Shown here: in pieces, positions 2,773 to 64,000 of the stretch | Numbering within the stretch: position 1 is the stretch's first letter | Layout of the letters: the number at the start of each line of letters is the position of its first letter | Position numbers and translations under genes: made by a program | NCBI GenBank assembly: GCA_003176045.1 | Contig: PSRM01000068.1 | Span: 60,084 to 124,083 of the forward strand | Source: Verrucomicrobiota bacterium | GTDB taxonomy: Bacteria; Verrucomicrobiota; Verrucomicrobiia; Limisphaerales; UBA8199 | DNA length: 64,000 bases | Direction: 5' to 3' | Notes under the pieces: generated by a model | Seen by the model: only the letters and a program-made list of their open reading frames with translations | Database searches by the model: none | Told to the model about the DNA's origin: nothing

Positions 2773-2773
2773 C

Positions 2774-6547: not shown

Positions 6548-6554
6548 GGCGACG

Positions 6555-6767
6555 TTATTGGCTGAGGGAATCCTCGATGGCCTGTTTGAGGCTGTCTTCT
6601 TTTTCCGTTTCCGATCTGGCATCAGCGCCGGGAGAAACATAGAGGTTGAGGGCCTTTGCAAACAGGGATTGCATGGCTTCGTCCTGCAGGTCGAGGAGGT
6701 CGAGAAGCGAGGTAATTTCGATCTCGGCGTGGCGGGATTTAAGAGCTTTTGATGAGGACGCGCTCAT
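6555..6767 (-). CDS. 70-aa acidic hypothetical protein
   Basis: ORF starts 5 nt after the AIPR stop and ends 7 nt before the ATPase start. It is acidic and helical-looking (EIEITSLLDLLDLQDEAMQSLF). No recognisable motif. Confidence 0.45.
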   Translation of the reverse strand: MSASSSKALKSRHAEIEITSLLDLLDLQDEAMQSLFAKALNLYVSPGADARSETEKEDSLKQAIEDSLSQ

Positions 6768-6772
6768 TGGGT

Positions 6773-27039: not shown

Positions 27040-27954
27040 ATGAGATCGAAAAAAATACTTGGCACTAAACTGTGGCGACCCGACCTCGGAGCAATTCCGG
27101 CCAGGCTGGGCGATCGGATCAAAGGCCAACCTGAAATACTCTGTCGCCTGGCGGAGACGATCATACGGCGAGAAACCGATGCGATTCCGCAGCGCGGCCC
27201 ACGGGGCAAATTCTTCTTCCCAGGACCAACTGGAACTGGAAAGACATTCACTGCACAGACGGTTGCCGATCTGTTGTTCGGGCCTGGGCATCTCATCATT
27301 TTCGATTGTTCAGAATACAAGACGGTGGAGAGTCTTGCCGCCCTGCTTGGAGATCGGAATGGGGATCAAGGCCGATTTGCTGGGGCCTACGAACGGGTCC
27401 CCGCGGGCTGCTGGCTTTTTGATGAAATCGAAAAGGCGCACAAGGAGTTTGTGGATCTGTTTTTGCAAATGGTTGGCGACGGGCGGGTCACCCAAGCCAA
27501 TGGACGAACTATTGATTTGTGCGGTATTTATATTTTCGTCACAAGCAATCTGGGTTCTGCCCAAATCCTGGGCCGACAACACTTGCCTTTCGCTTCCCTT
27601 GAACGCCATGTGGTGCATCACGTTCAAAAGCACCTCCGACCTGAATTACTCGGACGATTCGGACGACCATACGTATTCCGGCCTTTAAGTCGCGAGGCTC
27701 AGTCGGAAATCGCCATCCAGAAGCTAGAACAACTAGTGGACTGGCAGCGCGCGCAAGGCCGGACCATCAGCTATGATCCTATGGTCGTAACGTTTCTGAT
27801 GCAAAGGGGCTTCTCTTCGCGGCTTGGCGCGCGCCCATTATTGGATGTCATTGAAGAATTTGTTGGAAACGCGGTTGCGCAGAACCTTCTGACAGGGGGC
27901 TCGGGCAACGGCCGGTTGCTCGTTCGGGATGGCCATCTTGAATTGGTGCGATGA
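27040..27954 (+). CDS. Stand-alone ClpA/ClpB D2-like AAA+ ATPase
   Basis: IKGQPEILCRLAETIIR, Walker A FFFPGPTGTGKT, Walker B WLFDEIEKAHKEFVDLFLQMVGDGRVT, then IYIFVTSNLGS and GARPL. Together these match the AAA_2 (Clp D2) module. Confidence 0.8.
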   Translation: MRSKKILGTKLWRPDLGAIPARLGDRIKGQPEILCRLAETIIRRETDAIPQRGPRGKFFFPGPTGTGKTFTAQTVADLLFGPGHLIIFDCSEYKTVESLAALLGDRNGDQGRFAGAYERVPAGCWLFDEIEKAHKEFVDLFLQMVGDGRVTQANGRTIDLCGIYIFVTSNLGSAQILGRQHLPFASLERHVVHHVQKHLRPELLGRFGRPYVFRPLSREAQSEIAIQKLEQLVDWQRAQGRTISYDPMVVTFLMQRGFSSRLGARPLLDVIEEFVGNAVAQNLLTGGSGNGRLLVRDGHLELVR

Positions 27955-29487: not shown

Positions 29488-32235
29488 ATGATCACCGGAA
29501 AACCACAGAAGAACTTGCGCGACGCGAAGGAGTATTTCCGGCAGCATTTGGCTCAAGGGGACTATCATTCGGAAAGCCAAAGAATCCAAGGAATGTGGTT
29601 CGGGCGAGGAGTTGCCCGCCTGGGACTGAATCCTGCAGATCGAGTGACGGCAGAACACTTCGAGCGCCTTTGCGACAATCTCCATCCATTGACGGGGGAA
29701 AGGCTCACGGTCCGTAAGAGAGTCGTTGATCGCCGCATTTTCTACGATTTTACCGTCAGCGCGCCCAAGAGCGCTTCAATAATGGGCCTGATTATGCAGG
29801 ATAGTCGAATTCTCACAGCGCATGAGGAAGCGGCCAGTGAAGCTATGGCGCAAATGGAAAAGGTGGCTGCCGCCCGCGTACGGCAGGGCGGCCAACGGTC
29901 CGAACGCACAACGGGCGAAATCGTTGCAGCCATCTTTCAGCATGACTCTTCGCGAGCACTGGATCCGCAACTGCACACACATTTCATAATTTGGAATGCC
30001 ACATTTGACCCCGTGGAGAAACGTTGGAAGGCGCTCGAAACGATGGCGATGTTTGAAAAAATCAATTTCTTCACCGAAGTCTATCGCAACACTCTGGCGA
30101 GGCGATTACGCGAATTCGGCTATGGAATCCGGAACACTGCTCACGGATTTGAAATCGAGGGCGTCCCTCAGGGAATAATTGAGCGATTCAGCAAACGGCG
30201 TCAGCAGATTTTGGCTGCTGAGTCGCAGGCAATCGAGGCGGTGAATAAAAAACTTCGTGAAGCGCTTGAGCAAGCTGTGCGCGACAGCGTCGGACAACCA
30301 GCGGAGGTGCGAGAAAAAGCAGAGAAAGCCCTTCGCGAATTTAAGCCCATCACAAAGCTCACAAACACAGGTCGAGCAACCTTGGCTCACACTACCCGCC
30401 AGTGGAAAGACACAAACCTGGACCCGGCCGAGGTGCTTAGCTATCAAAAATCTCAACTGTCCAGCGATGAAATCGTGCAACTCCAACGGTTAATGCGGCC
30501 AGATGCGACCGCCATCAAAATTAAGCCCGAATCTATCTCCGCTAAGCAGGCAATTGATTATGCCCGCGACCACTTGTTTGAACGAAATAGCGTCGTTCCC
30601 ATCACGGAATTGTTGCGCGAAGCCTTAACATTTTCGCGCGGCCGACTTGAGTTGCCCGAGCTCGAGGCGGAGGTAGTGAAACGAGATGATTTTCTTCCAG
30701 TCGGTGAGTTTTTGACGACCCGCGAAACCCTGGTCGAGGAGCGACAAATGATCACTATCACGAATGAGGGGTTGGACCAACTCCGGCCCATCAACCCGAG
30801 TTACGTGCCGACCGCAAAACTGTCCGTTGAACAGAATCAAGCAGTGCGATTCTTGCTCAATTCTGCCGATTTGGTGGTCGGCTTACGCGGTGGCGCCGGG
30901 ACCGGCAAGACTGACCTGCTACATGAATTGGTTCGCAGAATAGAGCAACGCCACACTGCTGTTGTTCTCGCGCCGACAACGTCGGCGGTTGAAGTCCTTC
31001 GGAGAATGGGCTTTAAACGCGCTGCAACTCTCCAGCGATTTCTCCAGGACGAAGCGTTTCAGCACGATGAAAAGGGGAGCGTGTTGGTTGTTGACGAGGC
31101 GGGGTTACTTTCCCGGCGTGATATGCTCGCTCTTCTCAATATTGCCCATCGCTTGGGGTCTCGACTGATTCTGAGCGGTGATACGAGACAACACACCGGA
31201 ATCGAAGCGGGAGATGCGTTGCGTTTGCTCGAAGAGCGAAGCGCACTCCAAGTTATCGGTGTCCGGAAGATTCGTCGCCAAGTGGAGATTGAATACCGGG
31301 AAGCTATTGGTGAGCTCGCGAGAGGCGAAGGAGCAAAGGCCTTGGCGCGACTGGACAGGATCGGGGCTGTGTCAGAAATCGAAGGAGACAAACGGTATCG
31401 CCGCCTGGCCGAAGAATACATTTCATCGATCAGGGCCGGCAAAACGTCTTTAGTTGTAAGCCCGACATGGCGTGAAATTGAACAGGTTACCCAGAGCATT
31501 CGAGAGCAGATGAAGGAACAAGAACTTCTGGGGACGCGCGAAAGCACAATTGTGGTACTTCGCGGATTGAAGTGGACAAAAGCGCAAAAGCGTGACCTTC
31601 GCAATTATCGGCCTGGGTTGGTCCTCAACTTCTATCGAAATACTGCTCGCTTCGTAAAGGGTGACACTGCGGAGGTTATCAAGATGGAGCGCGACGCGTT
31701 GTGCGTCCAACTTCGGAATGGCCAACGCACGGAGGTTACCCGGAAACAAGCCGATTGCTTTGAAGTCACCGAAAAGGTGGATTTGAAGGTCGCGCCGGGG
31801 GACCGCCTGTTGCTTCAATCCAGCGAAAAGGCGAGAAGACTGTTCAATGGTCAAATCGTCACGGTCAAGGAAATCGCTCCGAACGGTGTAATCTTCTTGT
31901 CAGATGGGCGAGAAATACCGGTAGGATTTCGGACGTTCACGCACGGCTATTGCGTCACGAGTTACGCGTCACAGGGACGAACAGTGGACCATGTGTTTGT
32001 GGCAATGGATTCCCATTCCTTTCAGGCGGCTAGCCGCAATCAGTTTTATGTGAGCACTTCGCGTGCGAGGGAACGAGTCAAGATTTACACTGATGACAAA
32101 GAGTTTTTGAGGATGGTCGTCAATAAATCTGGTTCCCGGCTCTCTGCGATCGAATTGGCGGAAAGCCGACGCTTGGCGACCCGTGAATCAACCACCAACC
32201 GGCAAAGTGTAACGTTGGGAGTTGCGGCAGCCTGA
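29488..32235 (+). CDS. traI: MOBF relaxase (TrwC/TraI type) fused to a RecD-like helicase
   Basis: N-terminal TrwC domain with YDFTVSAPKS and the His triad HDSSRALDPQLHTHFIIWN. Helicase Walker A LRGGAGTGKT. C-terminal YASQGRTVDHVFV. Confidence 0.9.
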   Translation: MITGKPQKNLRDAKEYFRQHLAQGDYHSESQRIQGMWFGRGVARLGLNPADRVTAEHFERLCDNLHPLTGERLTVRKRVVDRRIFYDFTVSAPKSASIMGLIMQDSRILTAHEEAASEAMAQMEKVAAARVRQGGQRSERTTGEIVAAIFQHDSSRALDPQLHTHFIIWNATFDPVEKRWKALETMAMFEKINFFTEVYRNTLARRLREFGYGIRNTAHGFEIEGVPQGIIERFSKRRQQILAAESQAIEAVNKKLREALEQAVRDSVGQPAEVREKAEKALREFKPITKLTNTGRATLAHTTRQWKDTNLDPAEVLSYQKSQLSSDEIVQLQRLMRPDATAIKIKPESISAKQAIDYARDHLFERNSVVPITELLREALTFSRGRLELPELEAEVVKRDDFLPVGEFLTTRETLVEERQMITITNEGLDQLRPINPSYVPTAKLSVEQNQAVRFLLNSADLVVGLRGGAGTGKTDLLHELVRRIEQRHTAVVLAPTTSAVEVLRRMGFKRAATLQRFLQDEAFQHDEKGSVLVVDEAGLLSRRDMLALLNIAHRLGSRLILSGDTRQHTGIEAGDALRLLEERSALQVIGVRKIRRQVEIEYREAIGELARGEGAKALARLDRIGAVSEIEGDKRYRRLAEEYISSIRAGKTSLVVSPTWREIEQVTQSIREQMKEQELLGTRESTIVVLRGLKWTKAQKRDLRNYRPGLVLNFYRNTARFVKGDTAEVIKMERDALCVQLRNGQRTEVTRKQADCFEVTEKVDLKVAPGDRLLLQSSEKARRLFNGQIVTVKEIAPNGVIFLSDGREIPVGFRTFTHGYCVTSYASQGRTVDHVFVAMDSHSFQAASRNQFYVSTSRARERVKIYTDDKEFLRMVVNKSGSRLSAIELAESRRLATRESTTNRQSVTLGVAAA

Positions 32236-45164: not shown

Positions 45165-45580
45165 TGGTTCCTCCCGTGAACGCGGACTCTAACACCGTTT
45201 CCGTTGGCAGGGAATGCCCGGAAGCCTGACATCATCTTGTCAAAAATTGCGAATCAGAACGGGGACTTAACCGAGACTCACGCTCTCGTGATCAGCCCAA
45301 GACCCCGGAGTGCCCCAACCCGTTGACTTGGAGACAGTGTTTGCGGCATTAATGTCATTGGGTAGAAGGAGGGTTTTCTGTCGCGTTTTCTGCGGCTGGT
45401 TATGAGTCGAATGCAACGCCTTTCCTAATTTCAATTTCCCTTCGCAACCGCTCGTCCTTGAACGGCGGATTGTGAATGGAAGCTTCGATCAAGAGCTAAA
45501 GTGTGCCGCTATGCGCTTGGTCGGGACAAAAACAAAGCAAGCCGAGTAAAACCGGACTGCGGCACTGGAAAGAGCAATGC

Positions 45581-46438
45581 ATGAGACTGAACGAACAAAC
45601 GTCGAACTTTAAGGCGGTCGCCTTAGGGGACGACATGCTCCGCAGCCAGGCACCGAGCATCTTTGCAACGGGGCCAATGCAGGGCGTCAGCAGCCGTTAC
45701 ACATTCGTGCCGACTTCTCGAATCGTTTCGGGATTGAGGGAACACGATTGGGTTCCGGTGGAAGTGGAAGAGCAACGCATCCGCAAGGAAGACAGGCGGG
45801 GTTTTCAGAAGCACCTGATACGGTTTCGTCTTGCCACGCAGATGCAGACGTTGGCCGAATGGAACGTGGAACTGGTCCTGCTCAACTCGCACGATCGGGG
45901 TTGCGCATATCAACTTCACGCGGGGATCTTCCGGCGAATCTGTTCCAATGGATTGGTGATGAGCGAAGGGTCATTTGAGGCCATTCGCTTTCGTCATTCC
46001 AATTTGGAAGCGGAGAAAGTTGTTCAAGCGAGTTTTCGCCTGCTCGACTACGTTCCGAAGGTCGGCGAGATGGTCAATCGGTTCCGCGCCCGCGCTCTTG
46101 ATTCCCAGGAATCAACCGCGTTGGCCGGCCACGCACTCTTGTTGCGCTATGGCAGCATGGAGCGCGCACCCGTCGAAGCTGCAACGCTCCTGACCTCGCG
46201 TCGTTCGGAAGATGAGGGAACGGATCTGTGGACAACCATGAACCGCGTTCAAGAGAACCTGATTCGTGGTGGCGTTTCCGATTTCCGCAAGGACCGTCGT
46301 GGCCGGCTGCGATCGGTGAGGGCAATACGAGGCATTGATTCCAAAGTCAATTTGAACAAGGGACTTTGGAGCCTGGCTGAAAAACTGGCCAATGGTCAAC
46401 CGCTGGATGATGCCGAGCGGGTTGCACTTGCGAATTGA
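45581..46438 (+). CDS. DUF932 (DUF945) family protein
   Basis: Trimmed to MRLNEQTSNF. Motifs: APSIFATGP...SSRYTFVPT, FQKHLIRFRL, LLNSHDRGCAYQLHAGIFRRICSNGLV. Confidence 0.85.
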   Translation: MRLNEQTSNFKAVALGDDMLRSQAPSIFATGPMQGVSSRYTFVPTSRIVSGLREHDWVPVEVEEQRIRKEDRRGFQKHLIRFRLATQMQTLAEWNVELVLLNSHDRGCAYQLHAGIFRRICSNGLVMSEGSFEAIRFRHSNLEAEKVVQASFRLLDYVPKVGEMVNRFRARALDSQESTALAGHALLLRYGSMERAPVEAATLLTSRRSEDEGTDLWTTMNRVQENLIRGGVSDFRKDRRGRLRSVRAIRGIDSKVNLNKGLWSLAEKLANGQPLDDAERVALAN

Positions 46439-52377: not shown

Positions 52378-55300
52378 TCAACCTGGTTCATCCGAAGACT
52401 TTCCCTCGCCTTGCTGGTCAGGTCCGTTTGCTGCTTGCTGCGGTTCAAGCTGACCGGATGTTTGGCTTTTTGTTAAGTCGAGTTCATCTTCAATTTCGCG
52501 CTGTCGTTGCACCAAAGCCGCGAGGCGGTCCGCATACTCGAACGGTGCGTCCACCTGCGCTCGGCTGTCGGCGAGCCGCTTCTGAGTATCGGCAATATTC
52601 TGTCCAATCGTTGCCGCGAGCTCTTCAAGATGCTGAATTGTATGCTCCACGGAACGTATGGTGCCGTGAGCGGTGTCTGTTACTTTGGCGACATAAGTCG
52701 TGGCTCCCTTTATGACGATTTCCGGCCCCTGCATGAAGTTGTCAGCAACGAATAAGTCGAAACCTGCAATCTTCCCGATCTGTCGTTCAGAACGGCCGCC
52801 GCGCATCTTTTCGGCGCGGCGAATCAACAACTCGCCAGCGATCCCTCGGTCTCGAATCTCCTGACCTTCTAGAATCATCATGAACTTATCTCCGTTCGTG
52901 TCCTCACGGACCTTTAGGTCCTGCCGTACGGCTTCAAGTCGCTTCTCATGTGCTGGGATTTCATCAGCTAAATGTCGAACACGAGTTCGGAGCTTGAACA
53001 TGGTCTCTTGGTGTTCGCAATGCAGACGGCTCAGGCGGCCGACTTCGGCGTCAATTCGAGCTTTTTCGATGACCAGGGGATTTCCTGACGCGATTGCCTT
53101 GACTTCGGCATAAGTAAGAGCCGCGCCGTCTATGTCCTCAATGCGCCGCAGATCGCTTTCTCCGGTCATGACCTGGCTGATGAACTTCGCCTTCGTCTCC
53201 AATACTTGCCACATATATGCGTCGAAAGATTCTTCGGTAACATAGCGGTATATTTGGACCTCGGCGTTGGAGTTACCCTGCCTAAGGATACGTCCCTCGC
53301 GCTGCTCCACATCAGCGGGGCGCCACGGTGCGTCCAGGTGATGGAGAGCGATAAGGCGTTCCTGCACGTTAGCGCCAGTCCCCATTTTTTGCGTGCTGCC
53401 GAACAGGACGCGAATTTTTCCAGCCCTAACGTCTTTGAAAAGCGTGAGCTTCGCGGCGTCACTTTCGTAGTCCTGTATGAACGCGATCTCGCCCGCGGGA
53501 ACTCCAGCGAGGATGAGCTTGTCGCGCATATCCTCGTAAACAGAAAATCCTTTGTTTTGAGTGGGGATTGAGAGGTCACAGAAAACAAGTTGAGTGGAGC
53601 GATTGTTCATGGTGTCGCGCCAAATGCGCTCAATTTGGCGCACTGCTTGGTTAATTTTGCTATCGCCATGGTCTGGCAAACTGGCTTCGTGAAGCCGGAG
53701 GTCCAAAGCAGCCTTGCGCCCATCCGTGGTGACCAGAAGCATATTATCCTCGCGAGGATCAACACTCCCTGTCTTCAAAGCTTCGGCTCGTTCCACGAGA
53801 GATTGAACGATTTCCTTCAATTCGGGTGAGCAGGGGGCACTGACTACCGTGGGTTTGCCGCCGTGAAGGTCGGGCACGGGCAGCTTCAGCATCTCCTGGG
53901 TTTGAATGTCGGCGACCTGCCGAAACATCTGCATCAATTCAGGCACGTTTATGAAGCGCGCAAAGCGAGTGTGAAGCCGATACCCCGACCCATCCGGGGA
54001 GAGCTCGAGCGCGGTCACTGGTTCGCCGAAGGTAGCCGCCCACGAGTCAAAGTGAGCAACGCTTTGACCCTTGAGCAAACTCATTTCGAGAAAGCGCTGC
54101 ATCGTGAACATCTCAGCGACGCTGTTGGCGATGGGTGTGCCAGTGGCGAAAACAACTCCACCTCCACCGTTGATTCGCTGTACATGTCCAACTTTTAGGA
54201 ACATGTCAAAAGCCCGTTGTGAGGCGGTCTGAGGAAGCCCGGCGATGCGGGTCATTTTCGTGACATAGAATAGATTCTTAAAATAGTGCGCCTCGTCCAC
54301 GAATATGCGGTCCACACCAAGTTCCTCGAACGTCAGACCGTCGTCCTTCTTCTCATCTGCCGAAAGTTCCTTGAGTTTTGTTTCCAACTGTTTTTTCGAG
54401 CGTTCCAGCGCTTTTACGATTCGGGAATCTCCATCCTTTCGCTGTTGTTCGATTGCGAGCGCCAGCTCCCGCAAGTTCGCTTTGAAGAATTCTTCCTGTG
54501 TCGCGCGGGCGACGGGGATTTTTTCGAAGCCTGAGTGAGTAACGATCACGGCATCCCAGTTGCCGGTTGCGATTCGGCTCATCAGGGTCTTTCGCTTGTC
54601 CTTTTCGAAATCGTCCTTGGTGGCGACCAGAATATTCGCCCCGGGATATAACGCTAGCAGTTCTGATGAGAATTGACCCAGCATGTGATTTGGAACCGCG
54701 AAGAGTGTTTTACGCGCTAATCCGAGGCGCTTCAATTCCATGGCGGCCGCAACCATTGCGAACGTCTTCCCGGCGCCGACGACATGGGCGAGCAGGCAGT
54801 TGGGGGTCTGTAGAATCCGCCATACGGCGGCTTTTTGGTGGGGACGCAGCGTGATTGCCGGACTTGCGCCTGGCAAGGTTAAGTGGTCTCCGTTGAAAGT
54901 TCGTAATCGGGTGTGGTTGAATTCATCGTTGTATTTTCGGACAAGGCGTTCGCGTCGCTCATCATCCCGCCAGATCCATTGCTTGAAGCGCTCCTTCAAC
55001 TTCTCCTGCTTATCGCGGGCGGCCTCAGTGGCAGGCCCATTGATCACGTCGCGGTCCGTGTCGGGGTCATGGTCGTACACTGTCGGAACCCGCAAGTTGA
55101 GCGCATCCTCAATCAACTCAATAGCGCTCCTGCGGTCCGTACCCCATTCAGTAGTGTTGGCAACACTGAAGCGGGCGCCGTATCCGCCCCGTATAACCCA
55201 AAGGCCCAACTGTGGCGCATGGCTGACAGAAATGCCTTCCTCTCCAAGTAATTCAGCAGTGAAGATTTGAACATCTTGGGCCGGAATCCAGGTGCTTCCC

Positions 55301-57255
55301 AATCGAGCATCAATTTCCGGCGCAGTTAAGTCTGTCGGCTGCACACTCTTGAGTGCGTTGACATTTCCCGAAAATTGCTCGTCAGCCAGTGCGGCTGCTT
55401 CGGCTGCTGTGAGTTTGGCGCGAACATTCCCGGATAGGTAATCGTCTTCCGTTTCCCAGCGGTTCGTTTGTGGATTAAGAAAAATCGCGCCTTTCAATTC
55501 TGGCAAAAACTCGGAAGCTTTGCGGTGGAGCAGGCCCGCGAGGTAATCTAGGTCAACGCAGCCGCGTTCGTTCAGCGTAACGAGCAACGCTTCATGTGGA
55601 GCGTCGGTCTGGACTGTGGGCCTCTTTTTCTGGATTGTTCGCTCGCGAAAAATAGCAGCCTTCGCCGCACGGCCGGTTTCTTCGTCATAGAGCTCCAACG
55701 AAAGGAGAAGCGGCAGGTCAGGATCGCCGCGAAAAGCCGACGTGTTCGCGCGTTCTGAAATTGGGCCGCACCGGGCGACAAAGCTATCATAACTTTGATT
55801 GAGCTGTTCGCGCGCGGCCAGCACCTCGTCATCCGGCGTGCCATTGAGTTGCGAAGAAAGACATCGCCTTACGGCATCCCGCACGCGAATGAGTCCTCGA
55901 ATTCTCCGGGCAACTTGTGATGAGAGGCCGGTCAAAATCCGCAACGAGTCGCCATCCCGCACTGCGAGCTGATCATTTACGACAGTATAAGCGTTCGGTT
56001 TTATGTGTTCAGGAGCAGGGAACGTCTGCTCCAAAGTTGGCTTGGCGACTCGCCGTGCCTCTGGCTGAAAGACATCTTTGGGTAACAGGGCGATAACTTC
56101 CGCCAGTTGTTCGGTGAGGCGGCGGCCGTTGGGGGCGAGTGTAGGTTCGCCACGCGCATACATCCGACCCTCAAGTCGCATCTCGCCAAGCATCATTTCT
56201 GGTCGAGCGGCGAAGTACTCGTTGACGGGGATGGTCTCCCCCTGCGAGTTAGTTATCTCGCTCAACTCCTTCCAGGCCGGTCCTGTTGGTATTTCGCCCG
56301 GAATCCTTTTGCGGAACATGATAATGTCCGTGGTCACCTCCGTGTGCGCATTCCGTTTGAACGCGTCGTTTGGTAAACGAATGGCACCCAAAAGATCAGC
56401 CTGCTGTGAGACGTATTCTCGAAGCGCCGCATCCACCTTGTCGAGGGTTCCACGTGACGAAACGAACAGAATCAGCCCGCCCGGTCGGACTTTCTCCAGT
56501 GCGGCAGCGAAGAAGTAGTCGTGGATTACGAAGTTCCAGGACTTGAATCGCGGATCGAACGGCTTGTAATCACCGAATGGAATATTCGAGATGGCAACGT
56601 CATAAAAACCGTCAGCGAGTTTTGTTTCTTCAAATGGTTGGCGTCGAATGTCAGCATCGGGGTAGATCAATTTTGCCAGTCGGGCGGTTATGGAATCGAT
56701 CTCGACACCTGTGATGAGAGATCGTTTGTGCATTTCTTCGGGCATTAACCCGATGAAATGGCCCAAACCGAGAGCGGGTTCGAGAATCCGTCCATGTGTG
56801 AAACCAAACCGTGCCACTGCCGAATACATTGAGCGAATGACATCTGGCGCCGTGTAATGAGCGTTGAGGGTGGTCGCGCGAGCGGAGTCGAGTTCATCCT
56901 CCGACAGCAACGATTCAAGCTGCTCCCGCTCTTTCCTCCATTGTTCATTCAATGAGTCAAAAACCTGCGGCAACCCGCCCCAGCCGACGTAGCGGATCAA
57001 AGTTCGCTTTTCCTGATCGGTGGCAGGTCGGGTATCGGCTTCAAGTTGCTTGACAAGTTCGATGGCCCGCAGGTTGTCGCGGCATTTTTGCTTTAGGGAG
57101 CCGACGCCTAACCTATCTGCGTCTGTGATCCTATAGTTCCGCTGGTTCCGCAACGGCTCTGGTTCACTGCTCGGCGGGGTTTGCGAGGCCGATTCGTCTG
57201 GAACTTCTATGTCTCGGGCGGGAGGAAGATGTATCTCTCCCGAACCATTTCCCAT
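52378..57255 (-). CDS. Giant N6-adenine DNA methyltransferase plus SNF2/DEAD helicase fusion (P1 DarB-like architecture)
   Basis: MTase motif I LEPALGLGHFIG and motif IV AISNIPFGD. Helicase Walker A HVVGAGKTF, DEAH box VDEAHYFKN, motif VI EQREGRILRQGN. The start is set at Met95 of track ORF 52378..57537; the true start is uncertain. Confidence 0.85.
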   Translation of the reverse strand: MGNGSGEIHLPPARDIEVPDESASQTPPSSEPEPLRNQRNYRITDADRLGVGSLKQKCRDNLRAIELVKQLEADTRPATDQEKRTLIRYVGWGGLPQVFDSLNEQWRKEREQLESLLSEDELDSARATTLNAHYTAPDVIRSMYSAVARFGFTHGRILEPALGLGHFIGLMPEEMHKRSLITGVEIDSITARLAKLIYPDADIRRQPFEETKLADGFYDVAISNIPFGDYKPFDPRFKSWNFVIHDYFFAAALEKVRPGGLILFVSSRGTLDKVDAALREYVSQQADLLGAIRLPNDAFKRNAHTEVTTDIIMFRKRIPGEIPTGPAWKELSEITNSQGETIPVNEYFAARPEMMLGEMRLEGRMYARGEPTLAPNGRRLTEQLAEVIALLPKDVFQPEARRVAKPTLEQTFPAPEHIKPNAYTVVNDQLAVRDGDSLRILTGLSSQVARRIRGLIRVRDAVRRCLSSQLNGTPDDEVLAAREQLNQSYDSFVARCGPISERANTSAFRGDPDLPLLLSLELYDEETGRAAKAAIFRERTIQKKRPTVQTDAPHEALLVTLNERGCVDLDYLAGLLHRKASEFLPELKGAIFLNPQTNRWETEDDYLSGNVRAKLTAAEAAALADEQFSGNVNALKSVQPTDLTAPEIDARLGSTWIPAQDVQIFTAELLGEEGISVSHAPQLGLWVIRGGYGARFSVANTTEWGTDRRSAIELIEDALNLRVPTVYDHDPDTDRDVINGPATEAARDKQEKLKERFKQWIWRDDERRERLVRKYNDEFNHTRLRTFNGDHLTLPGASPAITLRPHQKAAVWRILQTPNCLLAHVVGAGKTFAMVAAAMELKRLGLARKTLFAVPNHMLGQFSSELLALYPGANILVATKDDFEKDKRKTLMSRIATGNWDAVIVTHSGFEKIPVARATQEEFFKANLRELALAIEQQRKDGDSRIVKALERSKKQLETKLKELSADEKKDDGLTFEELGVDRIFVDEAHYFKNLFYVTKMTRIAGLPQTASQRAFDMFLKVGHVQRINGGGGVVFATGTPIANSVAEMFTMQRFLEMSLLKGQSVAHFDSWAATFGEPVTALELSPDGSGYRLHTRFARFINVPELMQMFRQVADIQTQEMLKLPVPDLHGGKPTVVSAPCSPELKEIVQSLVERAEALKTGSVDPREDNMLLVTTDGRKAALDLRLHEASLPDHGDSKINQAVRQIERIWRDTMNNRSTQLVFCDLSIPTQNKGFSVYEDMRDKLILAGVPAGEIAFIQDYESDAAKLTLFKDVRAGKIRVLFGSTQKMGTGANVQERLIALHHLDAPWRPADVEQREGRILRQGNSNAEVQIYRYVTEESFDAYMWQVLETKAKFISQVMTGESDLRRIEDIDGAALTYAEVKAIASGNPLVIEKARIDAEVGRLSRLHCEHQETMFKLRTRVRHLADEIPAHEKRLEAVRQDLKVREDTNGDKFMMILEGQEIRDRGIAGELLIRRAEKMRGGRSERQIGKIAGFDLFVADNFMQGPEIVIKGATTYVAKVTDTAHGTIRSVEHTIQHLEELAATIGQNIADTQKRLADSRAQVDAPFEYADRLAALVQRQREIEDELDLTKSQTSGQLEPQQAANGPDQQGEGKSSDEPG

Positions 57256-57458
57256 GCCTGACCGTGGGCTTGCTCGGGAGTCAAACCCTGGCTGATCAAA
57301 TCGCGGCGAACCCGATCCATTTCCGCTTCCGTTTTCTCCTCGGCTTCCAGCAGCATCACCGGAAGCTGGCGCTTCGATTCCAGTTCCTCGACCATTCTCG
57401 GCAGAAACTCCCGCCAATGTTTCTCGGCCATTAAGCCGTATTGTGTCAGTGGTTTCAT
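57207..57458 (-). CDS. 83-aa small helical protein (TnpV-like by loose resemblance)
   Basis: Trimmed to MKPLTQYGLMAEKHWREFLP...AWEMVRERYIFLPPET. It reads as a genuine protein, whereas the overlapping frame of the giant ORF is G/S-rich low complexity. Confidence 0.55.
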   Translation of the reverse strand: MKPLTQYGLMAEKHWREFLPRMVEELESKRQLPVMLLEAEEKTEAEMDRVRRDLISQGLTPEQAHGQAWEMVRERYIFLPPET

Positions 57459-57854
57459 ACGTGTAGGTACTCTGAGCAGAGGAAAAGAGGTCGAGTTGCA
57501 ATTCCTGGTTCGCTTTGCTCCTCGCGACCGACCGCATAGTCCCCTCTCATGGCGCTCCCGTGAAGCAACTCGAATTACCGCACCTTGTCCATCCAAGTCA
57601 ACAGATCTCAAACGACGTTCCTGGTCTTCATCCTTCATCCTTCATCCTGACCTCCGGCGCTGAGCAGCTTCGGGCGAAATTGCCTCAACCGTCCGGTGCG
57701 GGGGGTCAGTTGTTAAGGTCGATTCGGGCAACCGTTGTCGCTCCCTCCCCGCTTCGCTTCCCCGGGGCGGAATAGTTGAAGAAGTCGAGTTCTCCAACAG
57801 CCAGCATCAGCTTAAGCCATCAATAGAATCTGTAGGTTCCGCTTTGGTCACAAC

Positions 57855-59114
57855 TCACGTGTGTACTGCTATATCAAGGGCTTGATTAATTGTCCTCCGA
57901 TTTAACCAACAGACGGTAACTGTCAGAACTGTAAGAGCTGACGATAAGAGGCAGATTATACGGTCGGAGAGAGCCAGTGTCCGCTGAAGTTGTACAATGC
58001 CGAAAATGGTAAAATTCACTCCCCCTGCCATGAGCACACGGCGAAGTGAAGCTAAATTGGCTGTGCGGTCGCTTGTGCCAGCTTGGACAGCGCGAGCAAA
58101 AATTGTGTCAGTAGCGCCGTAACAGATATTAGCCAGGCACCAGCCAAGAGCTATAGTAACAGAACTACGCTGGCAGTACGTAAACAGCGCTGTTACTATA
58201 TCAAGGAATACAAAGGTCCAAAGTGACACTTTTGCCATTTTCGAAACGTGGGTGCCCAGCATCGCCCCAAGCGCTCCGAGAGACATTACATAATACAGAG
58301 TCGTCAAACTTTTATCTGGTAGCAATCTTGGCAGCATCAAAGCCCCCATGAAGAAGCAGTTAAGAGAAAACTCAAGGGCCAGAACAGAGACTAATGGATG
58401 GTTCCATCGCCAGGGTTCCTTCATTTCAAATAACCGAGCAGCAACTGGGTTTTCGGGCGGCGCTTTCAATCTAGCCCCGCCCCCTAAAAACCCAAGAACG
58501 GCTGAACTGAAAACCAACATAAACCCTGCTTCAAATCGGTATGTGCTCGTCGCTGCGGACACACCCGTAAGGGATAACACTCCAAAGGCCAAACCTATCC
58601 ATATAACAATTCGCCCAATAAATTGAACAAAATTGCGGATCTTCACCGCCAAGGTCTTAAAGATGACTTCGCTGTTGGACTGCAACACCAGTCGGCACAG
58701 GAATTCTTCATTAGCTGGAAATGAGAATGCCTGAATGAGGGCGATCCCTATGCCATACAATAGGATGCGACTGACGGTTACTTTCCCCTCCCCAGCGGCT
58801 AAGGCCATGAAAATAGAGAAAGGTACAATCATTATTGCCAGTCCGCTGACTAACCGAGACCCTCCTAAACGCTTGGCTACGCTGGCAGCTATTGGGGCAA
58901 AAGCTATTGCCACACAACCGGAGATCATTTGAAGGATGACCCGCAACGACATCGAAGGTTGTGTTTGGGCAACAAGCCAGGTTAACGTGCTGCGAGTCAC
59001 CTGAGCAACGGCAGACAAAATGCCCAATAAAACCGCAAAACTTAGCGCTCGCGCTGGAATCAACTCAGCACTCCGGCTGACTGCCTTATTTGGAAGAAAA
59101 TGGCGTGATTTCAA
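57855..59114 (-). CDS. Polytopic membrane transporter, MFS-like
   Basis: 419 aa with roughly 12 hydrophobic segments. It is the last gene of the biosynthetic operon and overlaps the upstream stop by 4 nt. Confidence 0.55.
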   Translation of the reverse strand: MKSRHFLPNKAVSRSAELIPARALSFAVLLGILSAVAQVTRSTLTWLVAQTQPSMSLRVILQMISGCVAIAFAPIAASVAKRLGGSRLVSGLAIMIVPFSIFMALAAGEGKVTVSRILLYGIGIALIQAFSFPANEEFLCRLVLQSNSEVIFKTLAVKIRNFVQFIGRIVIWIGLAFGVLSLTGVSAATSTYRFEAGFMLVFSSAVLGFLGGGARLKAPPENPVAARLFEMKEPWRWNHPLVSVLALEFSLNCFFMGALMLPRLLPDKSLTTLYYVMSLGALGAMLGTHVSKMAKVSLWTFVFLDIVTALFTYCQRSSVTIALGWCLANICYGATDTIFARAVQAGTSDRTANLASLRRVLMAGGVNFTIFGIVQLQRTLALSDRIICLLSSALTVLTVTVCWLNRRTINQALDIAVHT

Positions 59115-60424
59115 ATCACGGATCGAGGCGATTCTGTTAAACGACGCTGCATAACGTTGGCCATTCTAGTTCCACTCCGTCGATGGTAATCGAAAAACCA
59201 CTCTATTTCTGACCTGAGGAGCGAGGACTCCCCCAAGAATTGGGACGGCCGTTCTAGATAACCCCATCCATTAGCCAGATCGATCGGCCCCTCAACGCTG
59301 CCCAACGGAGTGCCCAGTCGCCTTTGGAAGATAGACAACGAATAGTAAACGTGAGATTTGTCGAGCCACTCGTTTAAACTTTGTAAGGTAGTCTCGGTTT
59401 CGTTAGGCAAACCTACAATGACAAAAACTAACGGAATAAGCCCACAACGACGAATCAAGGAAATCGCATTCTCAATTTGGCTTCCGGTGATGCGCCCCTT
59501 TGTTAGGTAAGCCCTTTGATTAAGCTCTGGGGATTCGACACCGAGCCAAATCCCGCTGCATCCGGCCTCCTTCATCCTCAGCAGAGTTTTTTCATTAATA
59601 CAATCTACTCTTGTTTGACATATCCAGCTTACGCGCATTCCAGAAGCGATGATACTAGCGCATAGTCTCTGAACCCACGAATTGTCGATAGTAAATGTGT
59701 AATCCAAGAAGAAAAAGTGCCGAAAAGAATAGATCTCATACATTTGTTTCAACTCGGCGACTGTTAAGTCGACAGGGCGTTTTCTAAGTCGTTGGCCAAA
59801 AAACAAGTAACAGAAGTTACATGCGTAAGGACACCCACGATTTCCCAGTATGAGACCGCTATTTACTCGATCTAGTTGGTTTGAAACAAAACCTTCACTG
59901 AAATAATCTTGCATTCGTGCCAATCGGTACGCAGGCGAAGGCAACCGAGATAGCTCGTTATCGCTTCCAATCCTGATGCCGGAAGGGGGCCATGTCTTGG
60001 GTTTGCGGTTTTCAGACCGAATGCATCGCACCAACTCTGGAAGAGCAAACTCGAACTCTCCCCTTATGATTATATCAGCTTTAGTAAATTCTCGTGTAAG
60101 AGGGTCGTGGGCCGTAGCGTGAGATCCGGCACAAGCTACTAGAGTGTTGGCGTTACGCCTTATTGACGTGATACAGTCCCTCGCCGCTGATAACGGAGGA
60201 TAACACTGTGCTAAATCATAATCTGCGGAAAATACTACCGCCAAATCCGCAGCGCCTATTTTGGAGTAAGTAGCATCGCTCTCTTGTTCTATACGTAAGT
60301 CGAAAAAGGATACGTCGATCTCGTCTTGTTCGAGCTGCGCGGCTGCATACAGAGCACCGATCGGAACCTGGTGAAAGTTGTTCATCCCAGGTGGATCCCG
60401 AGGCATAACGAGCGACACCTTCAT
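59111..60424 (-). CDS. B12-binding-domain radical SAM enzyme
   Basis: CxxxCxxC cluster GNRGCPYACNFCY preceded by a Rossmann-like N-terminal domain. The layout is typical of class B radical SAM enzymes. Confidence 0.75.
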   Translation of the reverse strand: MKVSLVMPRDPPGMNNFHQVPIGALYAAAQLEQDEIDVSFFDLRIEQESDATYSKIGAADLAVVFSADYDLAQCYPPLSAARDCITSIRRNANTLVACAGSHATAHDPLTREFTKADIIIRGEFEFALPELVRCIRSENRKPKTWPPSGIRIGSDNELSRLPSPAYRLARMQDYFSEGFVSNQLDRVNSGLILGNRGCPYACNFCYLFFGQRLRKRPVDLTVAELKQMYEIYSFRHFFFLDYTFTIDNSWVQRLCASIIASGMRVSWICQTRVDCINEKTLLRMKEAGCSGIWLGVESPELNQRAYLTKGRITGSQIENAISLIRRCGLIPLVFVIVGLPNETETTLQSLNEWLDKSHVYYSLSIFQRRLGTPLGSVEGPIDLANGWGYLERPSQFLGESSLLRSEIEWFFDYHRRSGTRMANVMQRRLTESPRSVI

Positions 60425-60457
60425 GCGATCATTAACACAATACTGTCAGTCTGCCGG

Positions 60458-61855
60458 TTAACGACGCATGAGATCCAATGCCTGAGGGTGCTTGGTTCGC
60501 CTCGCGACATCGGTCGCAAATGCAGTTGCAACGTCATTGTTGAATGCTCTACCCGCTATCGTGCACTCCAGGCAATCCGCTTTTAGTTCCACCAATCCTG
60601 CTCGGGTAAGAAGGTCCGTCTCCTTTTTGTAGTAATTTGTGAATATTTCCCCTGTCAAGGTTTCGAACTTTGAGAGTTCAAGACCAAAGAATTTGACGCC
60701 CAATACTGCAAGACGACTTGTCCGCTCAGTTTGCGTCAATTTTTTGGCAAGCACTACAGGCGGCACATTCTCGTTGACCATTTTGGCGTATTTCGCGGGA
60801 TCGTGTTCGTTCGTATAAATGTTTCCGTTGAAAAATGAGAAAGCTCCGGGTCCAAGGCCAAGTGTTTCGAGCTGAGGCATTTTCCATCGGTCAACGTGAT
60901 AATCGCATCGACGAGATTTTGCAAAGTGATAAGGAGTGTATTGGTCGTAACCAGCGAGCGAAAGTCGCTCAAGCACCGTTTCGAACATTGCAAAATACTG
61001 CTCGCGGTCTGCAGGTTTAGCGACTTGTTGGTTTGATATCCTACTTGCCAGCCGTGTTCCTTGATGGGGAACGTACGGAAACCAAGACATATGGTCGATT
61101 CCTAAAGAGCGCACATTTTCTAAGTCTTGCTCGACCTCCTTGTGCTTTTGGCCGGGAAGGCGATACATCATATCAATATTTAGAGGAAAACCGGCCCCCA
61201 TGATTTTGTCCACCACCTCTAATGCATCTTTGGCTGTATGCCCCCGGCCCAGGATTTCGAGTTGTTTCTGCTCAGTAGATTGCACACCCATGCTGATCCG
61301 GGTTACGCCATACTGGCGGAAAAGATCAAACTTCTCTTCAACCAGGTCGCTTTGCGTTGGTTTAATCTCCATCGTAAATTCAACGACTGTTCGAAGATCA
61401 AAATTCGTGTCCAGCAACTCCAGCAGCCGATTCATGCTCGCGATACTCAACCTTGTGGGCGTTCCGCCCCCCACCCAGACCGTACGGACCCGTGTTCGCG
61501 TCAAATCATTTAATGAGCGAATCGCCCTTATTTCCTTTTCCAAGGAGTCTATGTAACGGAGCGCTTCCTCTTCTTTATAACGATACACGTTAAACGGGCA
61601 GAAACCGCAAATAGTGCCACAATAAGGGACGTCGACAAACAAATCGATTTCTCGATCACGACTCTCTCCGATCGCAGAGAATATCTCCACACCATTCGAA
61701 ACCGGCTCTAAGTTTGGGGGATAATAACGGACACATTCCTCGATCTTTACCAGATCCTGATAGTTCGTAATCCGCGCCAAATTGGACGGTGGCGAAACTG
61801 AAGGCTTAGGCGGGACTTGCCGTGTGAGCGCAGTCATTGAGTTTTGGGTTGCCAC
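60458..61855 (-). CDS. HemN-like (class C) radical SAM enzyme
   Basis: VPYCGTICGFCPFNVY, VWVGGGTPT, and a HemN_C-like tail. Confidence 0.8.
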   Translation of the reverse strand: MATQNSMTALTRQVPPKPSVSPPSNLARITNYQDLVKIEECVRYYPPNLEPVSNGVEIFSAIGESRDREIDLFVDVPYCGTICGFCPFNVYRYKEEEALRYIDSLEKEIRAIRSLNDLTRTRVRTVWVGGGTPTRLSIASMNRLLELLDTNFDLRTVVEFTMEIKPTQSDLVEEKFDLFRQYGVTRISMGVQSTEQKQLEILGRGHTAKDALEVVDKIMGAGFPLNIDMMYRLPGQKHKEVEQDLENVRSLGIDHMSWFPYVPHQGTRLASRISNQQVAKPADREQYFAMFETVLERLSLAGYDQYTPYHFAKSRRCDYHVDRWKMPQLETLGLGPGAFSFFNGNIYTNEHDPAKYAKMVNENVPPVVLAKKLTQTERTSRLAVLGVKFFGLELSKFETLTGEIFTNYYKKETDLLTRAGLVELKADCLECTIAGRAFNNDVATAFATDVARRTKHPQALDLMRR

Positions 61856-61925
61856 ATCACAACATGTACTGATTGAAGCCGCATCTCAAGCCAAAACCAT
61901 AAAACCATATCTGTTGTCGCTAAAT

Positions 61926-62642
61926 TCAAGAGAGCCAGACTCGAAGCACCACACGCGTGGAATTTGATGACAATCGGGTACGACCGTGGAGCATCGAAGT
62001 ATTCGACATGAGTAAGGTTTCGCCTGTATCTGCAGCATATTTGAATGGCTCGGATATGCTCAGGAAATCGTGCATCCAGTCGACGGCTGCAGCCGCCCTT
62101 GTTCCTTGTGCGGCTACGACCTTTGGCCGCCATATCGAATCGGAACGCCAGCGAATTCGCATCTGCCCGCCCTCTCTCTCTAAAATTGGGCCGACAAAAG
62201 AATCATCTAAATTTCCGTCATACGTTTTAACAAACCGAAACGATGCATTGAGGCAGGCCTGCAATACCCACTCCGGGGCCGAAGTCAGGATTTTGGAAAT
62301 CGGCATAAAAGTGCTCACACCACCGCCATCTGCATCTTTCGATAAAAACGACAAAAGAAACCTCCTGGGCGGATGCTTCAGAAAGGAGCCATCGGTATGT
62401 AATGGCAAAGCATCTAAGGACATAGCGGTGCTGTTCACTACTGTTGGGTCGTACTTTACAGTCCGGACATCGGCAGATGGCTCAAAGTTGCAAATTCCCC
62501 CCAGCTTTGAGCAGTACGCTTTTAGCTCATCAATTGAAGGAGGATTCGCCTCTCGAAGCACAATCAAAGCATCCCCGCTCTGCTCGGCCGCCTCAAAAAA
62601 GGAAGATCGGCTGGTCGTAACAATCGGCGTTATTGTTTCCAT
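61926..62642 (-). CDS. TauD/TfdA-like Fe(II)/2-oxoglutarate dioxygenase
   Basis: HxD facial triad in LPLHTDGSF, a distal His in MLHGRT, and a size typical of the family. Confidence 0.65.
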   Translation of the reverse strand: METITPIVTTSRSSFFEAAEQSGDALIVLREANPPSIDELKAYCSKLGGICNFEPSADVRTVKYDPTVVNSTAMSLDALPLHTDGSFLKHPPRRFLLSFLSKDADGGGVSTFMPISKILTSAPEWVLQACLNASFRFVKTYDGNLDDSFVGPILEREGGQMRIRWRSDSIWRPKVVAAQGTRAAAAVDWMHDFLSISEPFKYAADTGETLLMSNTSMLHGRTRLSSNSTRVVLRVWLS

Positions 62643-62660
62643 TGCTAGAATGACGGCTGC

Positions 62661-64000
62661 TTACTTTCTCAGCGTATTAAACAACTGACGTGACAACCGG
62701 GAAAACCCTATGGCGTTATGCCGGCTGCACAGTCCTTTCGTGTTCCGAATAAAGTCCGGCATATCAAACCTGATGAACGAGCGCTCTCCAAACCTCTGCA
62801 TCGAAGTAGTTTGGCAATCGGAAGGCTTGTTCGCATCCACGCGAACAAAGTATGGCACAAGCAAAGCCTCAGAATCTTGCAATGCCACTTCAAATTGTAA
62901 ACCACGATCATCTACCTCAGTCCGAATCCCCTCACGGCTCAAATACTCCGCCATCTGCAGAGCCAAAGGAAGAACAGTGATGTTTTCCGGCCAGATACGC
63001 AATATAACTGGCGAGAGCCATAACGGTAAGTGAGAAGAAATGCCTTGTGATTCTCGGCGAATAATGCGATCAAAACAAAAATATAGAAAGCGTTCCACTC
63101 CTCCTGTAAATACCGCGTGGATCGTTGCAGGCGTAGTTTTGTCTGAACAGGAGATTCCGAAAGTTTCAGTGATTCGCCTATCAATTTGAAACGTACTTAA
63201 CTCACGGCAGCACCCGGTCGAGTCAACAATGTGGTATTCAACATCAACCTCAACTCCATCTTCGCACAATTCCCCCGGAGGGCTCACTTTTAGAAGAGCG
63301 CGAGCGGAGGAGTCTTTGCAGAGAGTTTTAAAGTATTCTTCATGAGATCGTGCGAATTCGTCAGTGGCACTTATCAGAAGCACAATGGGTGCTTCCATCT
63401 CAGAAAGGGTCGAGAGAATCAACGGGTGGAAACGCAACGACAGATTAACAGCCTCTTCAACCGTGCGCGTATGGATATGTGCTTCTGGGAGATGAAAACG
63501 CCGTAATCTGAAACCGAGCTGCAGTGCCGGTTTTGGCTCGCGGCGAAAACTATCCGAAACCTCGAATAAAGCAAGCGGTAATGAATCCACGGGTAACGGG
63601 CGGTTTAAGCAAGCCGAGTACTTCTGGAAACATGCTGTTTGTCGAAGAACGCAGGTTTGGTCTGTGGTGTTAACCACGTACGGAGAATCACCATAGAGAC
63701 CCGGATGGGTGGAAATCAAGCGCGAGTAATTGCTCATCACAGGAGATGAAACATCAACGACGCTTACACCCTCTACTTTCACTACGGGCACGTCTAGCTC
63801 GCGACAAATTGCGTTTGCTACATCCTCAGAGTTTTTCATTGCCTGACCTAGAACAAAGCTGCTGTAGCCAACAAAACTCATGTGCCCCGGTTCAGTCAGA
63901 CCCTCCCAGCCGCAACCAAATAGTTCTAACAACTGAGATAACCGAGCTGGTTGTATTTCACTCTTACGTCCGAAAATCTGTTGTTGAATAAGAGACTGAA
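62661..64000 (-). CDS. Threonyl-tRNA-synthetase-like class II ligase (catalytic and anticodon-binding domains); N-terminus outside the window
   Basis: Motif 2-like FEVSDSFRREPKP...LRRFHLPEAHIH. Motif 3-like IHAVFTGGVERFLY. LPLWLSPVILRIWP parallels the ThrRS FPxWLAPVQV. I checked that the frame stays open from 63932 to 64000, so the track's TTG start is an artefact. Confidence 0.75.
   Translation of the reverse strand, partial: QSLIQQQIFGRKSEIQPARLSQLLELFGCGWEGLTEPGHMSFVGYSSFVLGQAMKNSEDVANAICRELDVPVVKVEGVSVVDVSSPVMSNYSRLISTHPGLYGDSPYVVNTTDQTCVLRQTACFQKYSACLNRPLPVDSLPLALFEVSDSFRREPKPALQLGFRLRRFHLPEAHIHTRTVEEAVNLSLRFHPLILSTLSEMEAPIVLLISATDEFARSHEEYFKTLCKDSSARALLKVSPPGELCEDGVEVDVEYHIVDSTGCCRELSTFQIDRRITETFGISCSDKTTPATIHAVFTGGVERFLYFCFDRIIRRESQGISSHLPLWLSPVILRIWPENITVLPLALQMAEYLSREGIRTEVDDRGLQFEVALQDSEALLVPYFVRVDANKPSDCQTTSMQRFGERSFIRFDMPDFIRNTKGLCSRHNAIGFSRLSRQLFNTLRK

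Follow-up and report, generated by a model that had tools for sequence, protein, structure and literature searches.

What does a set of five genes that begins with a threonyl-tRNA synthetase (ThrRS)-like ligase do next to a conjugative element in a Verrucomicrobiota genome? The genes lie at one end of a 64,000-nucleotide stretch (hereafter, the window: positions 60,084 to 124,083 of contig PSRM01000068.1, assembly GCA_003176045.1), and a first-pass annotation, made from the letters alone, had described them as an orphan biosynthetic operon whose product might inhibit a tRNA synthetase. Our analysis points, with somewhat better than even confidence, to a mobile cluster for a threonine-like compound that targets ThrRS, with a ThrRS-derived adenylating ligase as a biosynthetic enzyme and a second, full-length ThrRS for immunity. 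The five open reading frames (ORFs) are co-directional on the minus strand, occupy 57855-64000+ and are spaced by 18, 70, 33 and -4 nt, in exact agreement with the arrangement first described:

62661..64000 (open at the window edge), minus strand: ThrRS-derived ligase, with a class II core and a degenerate anticodon-binding domain, without an editing domain
61926..62642, minus strand: TauD/TfdA-family Fe(II)/2-oxoglutarate oxygenase, 238 aa (Pfam TauD)
60458..61855, minus strand: HemN-like (class C) radical S-adenosylmethionine (SAM) enzyme, 465 aa (Radical_SAM and HemN_C)
59111..60424, minus strand: AprD4-like radical SAM enzyme ("B12b") with an N-terminal B12-binding-like domain, 437 aa (Radical_SAM)
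57855..59114, minus strand: cluster-specific membrane protein with a major facilitator superfamily (MFS) fold, a putative exporter, 419 aa from a TTG start (fold model and relatives)
57538..57854: spacer that forms the downstream boundary of the gene cluster, before the SNF2/methylase-like gene of the conjugative element

These five genes are the distal part of a cassette of about nine. In relatives, the full cassette comprises the MFS gene, a B12-type radical SAM gene ("B12a"), a short-chain dehydrogenase/reductase (SDR), a 2-hydroxyacid dehydrogenase, the ligase, TauD, the HemN-like enzyme, the AprD4-like B12b and a full-length ThrRS. Neighbourhood gene lists and tBLASTn synteny tables placed it in about 15 independent loci across Actinomycetota, Acidobacteriota and Verrucomicrobiota. 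Its hosts are Streptomyces (L001, L004), a Pyrinomonadaceae metagenome-assembled genome (MAG) of the Acidobacteriota (L002), Actinophytocola (L007), actinobacterial or unassigned metagenome contigs that include L009, L010 and L016-L018, and the Verrucomicrobia MAG of the window, and the loci span 0.43 to 0.73 in G+C. Compared with their Pyrinomonadaceae counterparts, the window proteins show 52-62% identity. Among the cassette proteins, the ligase is the least conserved across loci and the 2-hydroxyacid dehydrogenase is among the best conserved. Gene content is kept through at least four gene orders (L016, L018 and L019, for example, are reordered), and this persistence of content despite differing order is our strongest argument that the genes are functionally coupled. 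Chance juxtaposition was rejected on the basis of recurrence in about 15 loci. The ligase, TauD, HemN-like, radical SAM and MFS genes are therefore not unrelated neighbours, and the description as an orphan biosynthetic operon holds: the genes are co-conserved across phyla, and full-text literature searches turned up no paper on the cassette or on any bacterial biosynthetic ligase derived from ThrRS. In the window's own genome, the SDR, 2-hydroxyacid dehydrogenase, B12a and ThrRS genes are expected upstream of the ligase, past position 64000. Signs of mobility accompany several copies, with relaxases in L005 and L008, a transposase in L001 and the conjugative element in the window.

One locus carries a minimal variant. 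L008 consists of ThrRS, SDR, 2-hydroxyacid dehydrogenase, ligase and TauD, without any radical SAM gene, so the radical SAM enzymes appear dispensable. A T-box leader (5186-5425, 106 bits) lies about 470 nt upstream of the L008 ThrRS, and its specifier reads ACC, a threonine codon; it was the sole match in our Rfam scan, which was empty for the window. Just upstream of this T-box-led row are genes for threonine ammonia-lyase (IlvA) and RidA. The actinobacterial versions have additions of their own: a family 2 glycosyltransferase (GT2) gene flanks the companion ThrRS (L004 17364-18470; L009 1830-4146; L010 1949-4282), and L009 and L010 also encode a soluble protein of ~395 aa without a family match, 62% identical between the two loci. 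Both the GT2 gene and the ~395-aa protein are missing from the Acidobacteria and Verrucomicrobia versions, which carry the MFS gene instead. None of the locus gene lists contains an aminoacyl-tRNA-dependent transferase.

The ligase ORF is identical to a 475-aa protein (P0001) annotated as "hypothetical protein C5B50_05625" in the Verrucomicrobia MAG, where its contig measures 148,852 bp. Residues 31-475 lie inside the window; the frame is open at the edge, as had been recognized, and the first 30 codons fall outside it (~64001-64088), with the gene start expected near 64088. The protein matches Pfam tRNA-synt_2b (35.2 bits; cutoff, 29.3) and HGTP_anticodon (21.4 bits; cutoff, 21), and it has no Pfam match to an editing domain (tRNA_SAD or tRNA-Thr_ED). 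It lies far below the cutoffs of the ThrRS families, scoring 205.1 bits against a required 484 for the archaeal ThrRS model NF003068, its best model, of which the alignment covers positions 181-560 of 613, and 95.9 against 383.65 for TIGR00418. About 42 close relatives among 5.8 billion clustered proteins form a small separate clade, which an exhaustive profile search reduced to ~11 core representatives at 50% clustering. Ligase loci are correspondingly rare: a search of 185,579 species-representative genomes gave two, the JGI metagenome collection seven and a plasmid database none.

We aligned the ligase with the S. aureus and Salmonella ThrRS and also built a 47-sequence alignment. The zinc triad C153/H204/H324 (E. 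coli C334/H385/H511) is invariant in 25 ligase-family sequences, as are the motif 2 residues R182, E184, R194, R196 and F198 and the motif 3 residues E332 and R333, which bears out the initial recognition of class II motifs 2 and 3; T299 and Q301 are likewise kept and invariant. Other positions are changed. E202 replaces D383, the position of Q479 is a Glu, and the strand with Y462-G463-P464-K465 in E. coli ThrRS, "FFYFVAK" in archaeal-type enzymes, has become C-E-D-G-V-E-V-D (275-282) in the ligase, with the consensus C-[EQM]-D-G-[VI]-E-[VILA]-D in 13/13 core members shown. In the 47-sequence alignment, every bona fide ThrRS retains both D383 and the aromatic strand. So do some truncated proteins, which the alignment sets apart; these are presumably true archaeal ThrRS-cat enzymes. 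The anticodon-binding region, which the first-pass annotation had described as kept, is kept as a domain fold, but its basic "GKKIR(D/E)AE" helix is lost or degenerate and is now neutral or acidic, and the mean net charge of the domain is -3.6, versus -0.7 in ThrRS.

An AlphaFold2 (AF2) model of the ligase, built on 25 family members (pLDDT 82.7, pTM 0.84), matched exclusively structures of the ThrRS catalytic-plus-anticodon-domain type, with a target-normalised TM of ~0.8. Judged from these residues, the ligase appears still to bind zinc, an alpha-amino/beta-hydroxy acid and ATP, with its tRNA-acceptor surface rebuilt for another, possibly cationic, acceptor. The signature extends beyond the core clade. 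Seven distant, truncated ThrRS-like proteins of 447-496 aa and 246-384 bits (P0201, P0203, P0204, P0206, P0210, P0212 and P0215) carry it, in that Glu stands in for D383 and the strand reads C/Y-E-[DN]-G, and a superfamily of ThrRS-derived ligases may thus be broader than the cassette. The context of P0201 (L021) is only 3 kb long and uninformative.

A full-length ThrRS was found inside the cassette in 11/11 independent loci with enough flank, and nine more contigs appear to hold ligase and ThrRS together, as judged by matching contig sizes. In nine loci the companion is archaeal-type and has a tRNA-Thr_ED editing domain, whereas L008 and L019 have a bacterial-type enzyme, so that the conserved element is "a ThrRS" and not one specific lineage; every copy carries an editing domain, either tRNA-Thr_ED or tRNA_SAD. 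The L002 companion scores 769.8 bits on NF003068 (cutoff, 484) and 456.6 on TIGR00418 (cutoff, 383.65). Archaeal-type companions are ~70-89% identical across phyla, and their bacterial clade also takes in copies in housekeeping-looking contexts (L012, L013). Streptomyces as a genus carries a bacterial-type thrS. The two bacterial-type companions depart from ordinary copies near the active site: the L008 enzyme (5896-7635), which lacks a TGS domain, has Val at the E. coli L489 position and reads "FTLAT" where "WQxGT" is conserved, and the L019 enzyme (~1920-3812) is the only companion with Met at the L489 position, as in ObaO (PMC11252418).

Archaeal-type ThrRS genes also occur in other settings. 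In L011 (Micromonospora qiuiae BOPC01000064.1, 2539-14419), a ThrRS of the same clade, 76% identical, stands beside a different gene cluster of nonribosomal peptide synthetase (NRPS)-like type, with a stand-alone adenylation-peptidyl carrier protein (PCP) protein, MbtH, a cytochrome P450, a class IV aminotransferase, a thioesterase and a BTAD regulator; this may be another ThrRS-linked pathway. In L012 (7923-11884, a Firmicutes MAG), a short alanyl-tRNA synthetase (AlaRS)-like gene of 596 aa, with tRNA-synt_2c and tRNA_SAD, directly precedes the ThrRS.

The sub-cutoff scores, the missing editing domain, the remodelled strand and the full-length ThrRS adjoining the ligase in relatives led us to reject a housekeeping ThrRS, which the first-pass annotation had named as one of two findings that would overturn its proposal. 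A crenarchaeal-style split pair of ThrRS-cat and ThrRS-ed was also rejected, as the companion ThrRS is fully catalytic. Two roles had originally been put forward for the ligase, a self-resistance copy and an amino-acid-activating biosynthetic enzyme; the former is now disfavoured because the candidate resistance gene is the separate full-length ThrRS, and the latter is favoured. The presence of that companion in the clusters of relatives also strengthens the idea of a tRNA-synthetase inhibitor.

Families could be assigned to the tailoring enzymes of the cassette (TauD, the radical SAM enzymes and the 2-hydroxyacid dehydrogenase), but their chemistry is not assignable, since none reaches an equivalog cutoff. 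The oxygenase, correctly called TauD-like at the outset, scores 39.8 bits on Pfam TauD (cutoff, 27); its iron triad H82-x-D84...H219 and R230/R234 are invariant in eight homologues, and it is 61% identical to its L002 homologue. Its weak best matches, TmpA (28 bits, with an equivalog cutoff of 400) and gamma-butyrobetaine hydroxylase, act on cationic substrates. The TauD gene comes immediately after the ligase in almost every locus, with an overlap in some, and it is translationally coupled to the ligase in several.

The HemN-like enzyme exceeds the cutoffs of its domains (Radical_SAM, 74.5 bits; HemN_C, 26.8 bits, cutoff 24), in line with its first naming, and falls below every equivalog cutoff (HemW, 190 versus 205; ChuW, 186 versus 400; HemN, 144 versus 325). 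Its CxxxCxxC motif appears as YCGTICGFC in the translation, and its nearest solved structures, HemN (1olt, 3e-30) and the methyltransferase NocN (9p2u, 6.5e-27), are about equally close. For B12b (59111-60424), which had been labelled a B12-dependent radical SAM enzyme of a class that performs unusual methylations, the radical SAM core stands (53.1 bits; CPYACNFC motif), but the B12 label is not secured and methylation is not established: the B12-binding match, at 26.0 bits, falls short of the 32.1 required and is also weak to faint in homologues, and the nearest solved structure is the diol dehydratase AprD4 (6fd2, E=9e-22). AprD4 is not known to use cobalamin. B12b is 59% identical to its L002 homologue. 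B12a, present in relatives, is nearest to OxsB. The 2-hydroxyacid dehydrogenase contains, relative to solved members, an insert of ~140 aa between its substrate-binding and NAD-binding domains (L002 8626-9993, residues ~134-276).

The membrane protein, called as 365 aa by NCBI (C5B50_05605) versus 419 aa from the TTG start, has no Pfam match of its own. MFS_1 is matched by 4/12 of its relatives (best E=2.6e-6), and an AF2 model of moderate confidence (pLDDT 65.6, pTM 0.62) shows 6+6 helices, with the top 50 PDB matches in Foldseek all MFS transporters (TMq 0.51-0.67). The initial naming as an MFS-like exporter is supported as to fold, with export a putative role. The protein is 60% identical to the product of the gene that heads the Pyrinomonadaceae cluster, and its family numbers 13 database proteins, eight of them apparently cluster-linked, on the basis that their contig size matches that of a ligase or ThrRS contig, and one from the window's own contig. 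This MFS family appears to be exclusive to ThrRS-ligase clusters.

We infer the substrate, acceptor, target and immunity role in the following model from the observed gene content, co-conservation, retained or lost residues and folds. The ligase would adenylate threonine or a threonine-like beta-hydroxy amino acid, possibly the product of the adjacent TauD hydroxylase, because it keeps both the zinc site, which is the grip of ThrRS on its alpha-amino/beta-hydroxy acid, and the ATP site. It would probably pass the aminoacyl group to a small, perhaps cationic, acceptor instead of tRNA, because the tRNA-facing strand and the anticodon-domain helix have turned acidic or neutral. The two dehydrogenases could make or trim the acceptor partner, the radical SAM enzymes could tailor the scaffold, and the MFS protein could export the product. 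Such a product would mimic threonine or threonyl-adenylate and hit ThrRS, and the cluster's own ThrRS copy would protect the producer. A bolder proposal is tentative, and we would not be surprised to see it fail: the ligases would form a new family, derived from ThrRS but independent of tRNA, and their product would be the first antibiotic against ThrRS to come from neither a polyketide synthase (PKS) nor an NRPS.

Several observations weigh against a ThrRS-directed product with ThrRS-based immunity. The upstream half of the window's cassette, and any ThrRS in it, fall past position 64000, outside the sequence that was read, and the 120 best ThrRS matches include no archaeal-type ThrRS from the 148,852-bp Verrucomicrobia contig. 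In a neighbour-joining tree of 123 sequences, the cluster-linked ThrRS form no separate clade, although the labels linked and non-linked in this tree rested on contig size and were unreliable (P0144 and P0073, labelled "non-linked," proved to be linked). At 23 key active-site positions, the cluster-linked archaeal-type ThrRS equal the L012 and L013 copies. With no resistance signature in the ThrRS sequence, the proposed immunity role comes from position and precedent. The ligase is also predicted to retain the fold of the anticodon-binding domain, which would be compatible with the use of tRNA.

That fold is one reason to consider the route known from ascamycin biosynthesis in Streptomyces sp. 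80H647, in which AcmD, an extra and more ascamycin-resistant AlaRS, supplies Ala-tRNA, and AcmF, a truncated AlaRS-like protein in its own clade, transfers alanine to sulfamoyl-adenosine (PMC12945691). By analogy, the ligase would take Thr-tRNA(Thr) from the companion ThrRS and move threonine to a small-molecule acceptor, reversing the second half-reaction of an aminoacyl-tRNA synthetase (aaRS) to give a stable threonyl-adenylate mimic. The architecture matches, with a full extra aaRS and a truncated paralogue of its own clade that has aminoacylation and tRNA-recognition domains (PMC12945691), and a ThrRS is always in the cluster. However, AcmF has lost most of its ATP-binding and activation residues, whereas those of motifs 2 and 3 are all invariant in the ligase; the GKKIR helix of the anticodon domain is lost or degenerate and the domain is more acidic; and the cassette has no nucleoside or sulfamate acceptor genes. 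We rank direct activation above this route because the ligase keeps its ATP site, and we consider the AcmF-like transfer unlikely. Less probable by far is a second tRNA-based explanation, in which the ligase is a genuine editing-less synthetase that charges tRNA with threonine or an analogue, for tRNA-tethered biosynthesis or for incorporation into protein. It has complete catalytic machinery and the same domain architecture as A. pernix ThrRS-1 and yeast MST1, both among its fold matches, and the pyrrolysine cluster, with a radical SAM enzyme, a ligase, a dehydrogenase and a class II aaRS, offers a loose analogy. Yet its scores are far under the ThrRS family cutoffs, true truncated archaeal ThrRS keep D383 and a YYW/FYF strand where the ligase family does not, its anticodon-domain helix is degenerate, the cassette has no transferase that uses aminoacyl-tRNA, and scans for tRNA genes in the window and in five loci (L001-L005) came back empty. 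The most specific form of this explanation, in which a radical-SAM-tailored threonine analogue is loaded onto tRNA(Thr) for tethered biosynthesis or deliberate recoding while the companion ThrRS sustains normal decoding, is equally improbable.

The cluster might instead make a free, non-canonical threonine analogue, as an antimetabolite or building block. The ThrRS would then be there for fidelity, to discriminate or edit against the analogue, and not for resistance to an inhibitor, and the ligase would conjugate or mask the analogue, perhaps in the form of a dipeptide-like pro-toxin. Hydroxylation of amino acids is common among TauD enzymes, every companion ThrRS has an editing domain, and L008 carries threonine ammonia-lyase and RidA beside the cassette. 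There is also precedent, in that tRNA-editing functions mark pathways for non-canonical amino acids and ThrRS mischarges beta-ethynylserine (PMC13149037). This explanation largely overlaps the one we prefer, from which it differs solely in the mode of toxicity, but the cassette has no conserved aminotransferase or other amino-acid-forming enzyme, and the IlvA/RidA pair is confined to one locus; we give it a minor but appreciable chance. Least probable of all is an operon that breaks down or salvages threonine-like compounds, or a chance grouping, with no secondary metabolite made. Dehydrogenases and a dioxygenase are typical of catabolism too, and L008 is under a threonine T-box and adjoins IlvA; against this, the cassette is rare, patchy across phyla and carried on mobile elements, and alongside a linked extra ThrRS it has an MFS family of its own and as many as three radical SAM enzymes.

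At the 3' boundary of the gene set, at ~57.8-58.0 kb, G+C steps from ~0.55 to ~0.49 and stays low until the window end. The spacer between the cluster and the SNF2-like gene contains a short tandem repeat, tcatcc-ttcatcc-ttcatcc, at 57625-57650. Promoter and terminator counts across the cluster were no higher than in shuffled controls, and tBLASTn with the nine L002 proteins as queries found no cluster homologues within 1-57 kb. These remaining 57 kb (1-57537) are a conjugative or integrative element with defence-type genes:

4415-6661: PbeC/DndD-like, defence-type cargo
6773-8632: AIPR/AbiU-like, defence-type cargo
12776-13792: TrbI, conjugative element
17943-20564: TraG-like ATPase, conjugative element
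23172-26870: CHAT-TPR protein, defence-type cargo
27951-29396: type IV coupling protein, conjugative element
29488-32235: TrwC relaxase, conjugative element
45503-46438: DUF932, conjugative element
52378-57537: SNF2 helicase of 1719 aa with a methylase-like N-terminal part, defence-type cargo

If the threonine-like, ThrRS-directed product that we favour exists, a compact cassette free of PKS and NRPS genes, tailored by radical SAM enzymes and equipped with its own ThrRS, would point to a new chemotype for a target already validated against bacteria and parasites, and ThrRS would join the short list of aaRS scaffolds recruited to secondary metabolism. The ligase signature, with zinc and ATP sites kept and an acidic tRNA-facing strand, can be used for genome mining, and the cassette rides conjugative or mobile elements in rarely mined phyla (Verrucomicrobiota, Acidobacteriota). 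Cultured carriers (Streptomyces sp. 3MP-14, GCA_006334905.2, and Streptomyces sp. 900105755, GCA_054083595.1) make the hypothesis directly testable.

Among known systems, several share parts of this design. Crenarchaeal ThrRS-cat (A. pernix ThrRS-1, 3a31) and yeast mitochondrial MST1 also consist of a catalytic and an anticodon-binding domain without an editing domain. They are true synthetases, however, and the ligase has E202 and CEDGVEVD where the archaeal truncated relatives have D383 and the aromatic strand; 3a31 itself is a weak match to it (TMq 0.53). SerRS-like amino acid:carrier-protein ligases, MshC and AsnA are alike in that a truncated aaRS core adenylates an amino acid for a non-tRNA acceptor (PMC9437257), but they derive from SerRS, CysRS or AspRS, and the cassette has no carrier protein gene. 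No bacterial biosynthetic enzyme derived from ThrRS appears in a 2022 review that covers duplicated aaRS and aaRS-like proteins (PMC9437257).

On the side of immunity, the named ThrRS inhibitors are the nearest comparison. Obafluorin is made by an NRPS assembly line and borrelidin by a PKS. The vibriomycins derive from NRPS or PKS-NRPS assembly lines (PMC13515044). As in the cassette, a second ThrRS is encoded in each biosynthetic cluster (ObaO for obafluorin, BorO for borrelidin, and that of the vibriomycin cluster; PMC11252418, PMC13515044); unlike them, the cassette has neither a PKS nor an NRPS. ObaO itself carries G463S and L489M (PMC11252418), whereas the archaeal-type companions show no distinguishing substitution at the positions compared. 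The same logic extends to other synthetases. Albomycin biosynthesis also uses radical SAM enzymes. Extra aaRS copies are immunity genes for albomycin, mupirocin and indolmycin (PMC9437257), and both albomycin, with SerRS2 immunity and a seryl-thionucleoside warhead, and SB-203208, with the IleRS-like SbzA, pair an aaRS-targeting product with an aaRS copy in the cluster (PMC9437257, PMC12945691). They differ in aaRS class, specificity and scaffold genes, and the cassette has no siderophore or nucleoside genes.

The closest precedent remains ascamycin, where one cluster likewise combines a full-length extra aaRS with a truncated, divergent paralogue of the same family and where the product is an aminoacyl-adenylate mimic. 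The two systems differ in aaRS family, AlaRS versus ThrRS, in the ATP-binding and activation residues that the ThrRS-derived ligase keeps and AcmF lost, and in their accessory genes, since the cassette has no sulfamate or nucleoside genes and instead encodes a TauD oxygenase, a pair of dehydrogenases and up to three radical SAM enzymes. The logic of an aaRS-like enzyme paired with an immunity aaRS is already known, but no precedent was found for this enzyme family, this set of genes or the presumed product.

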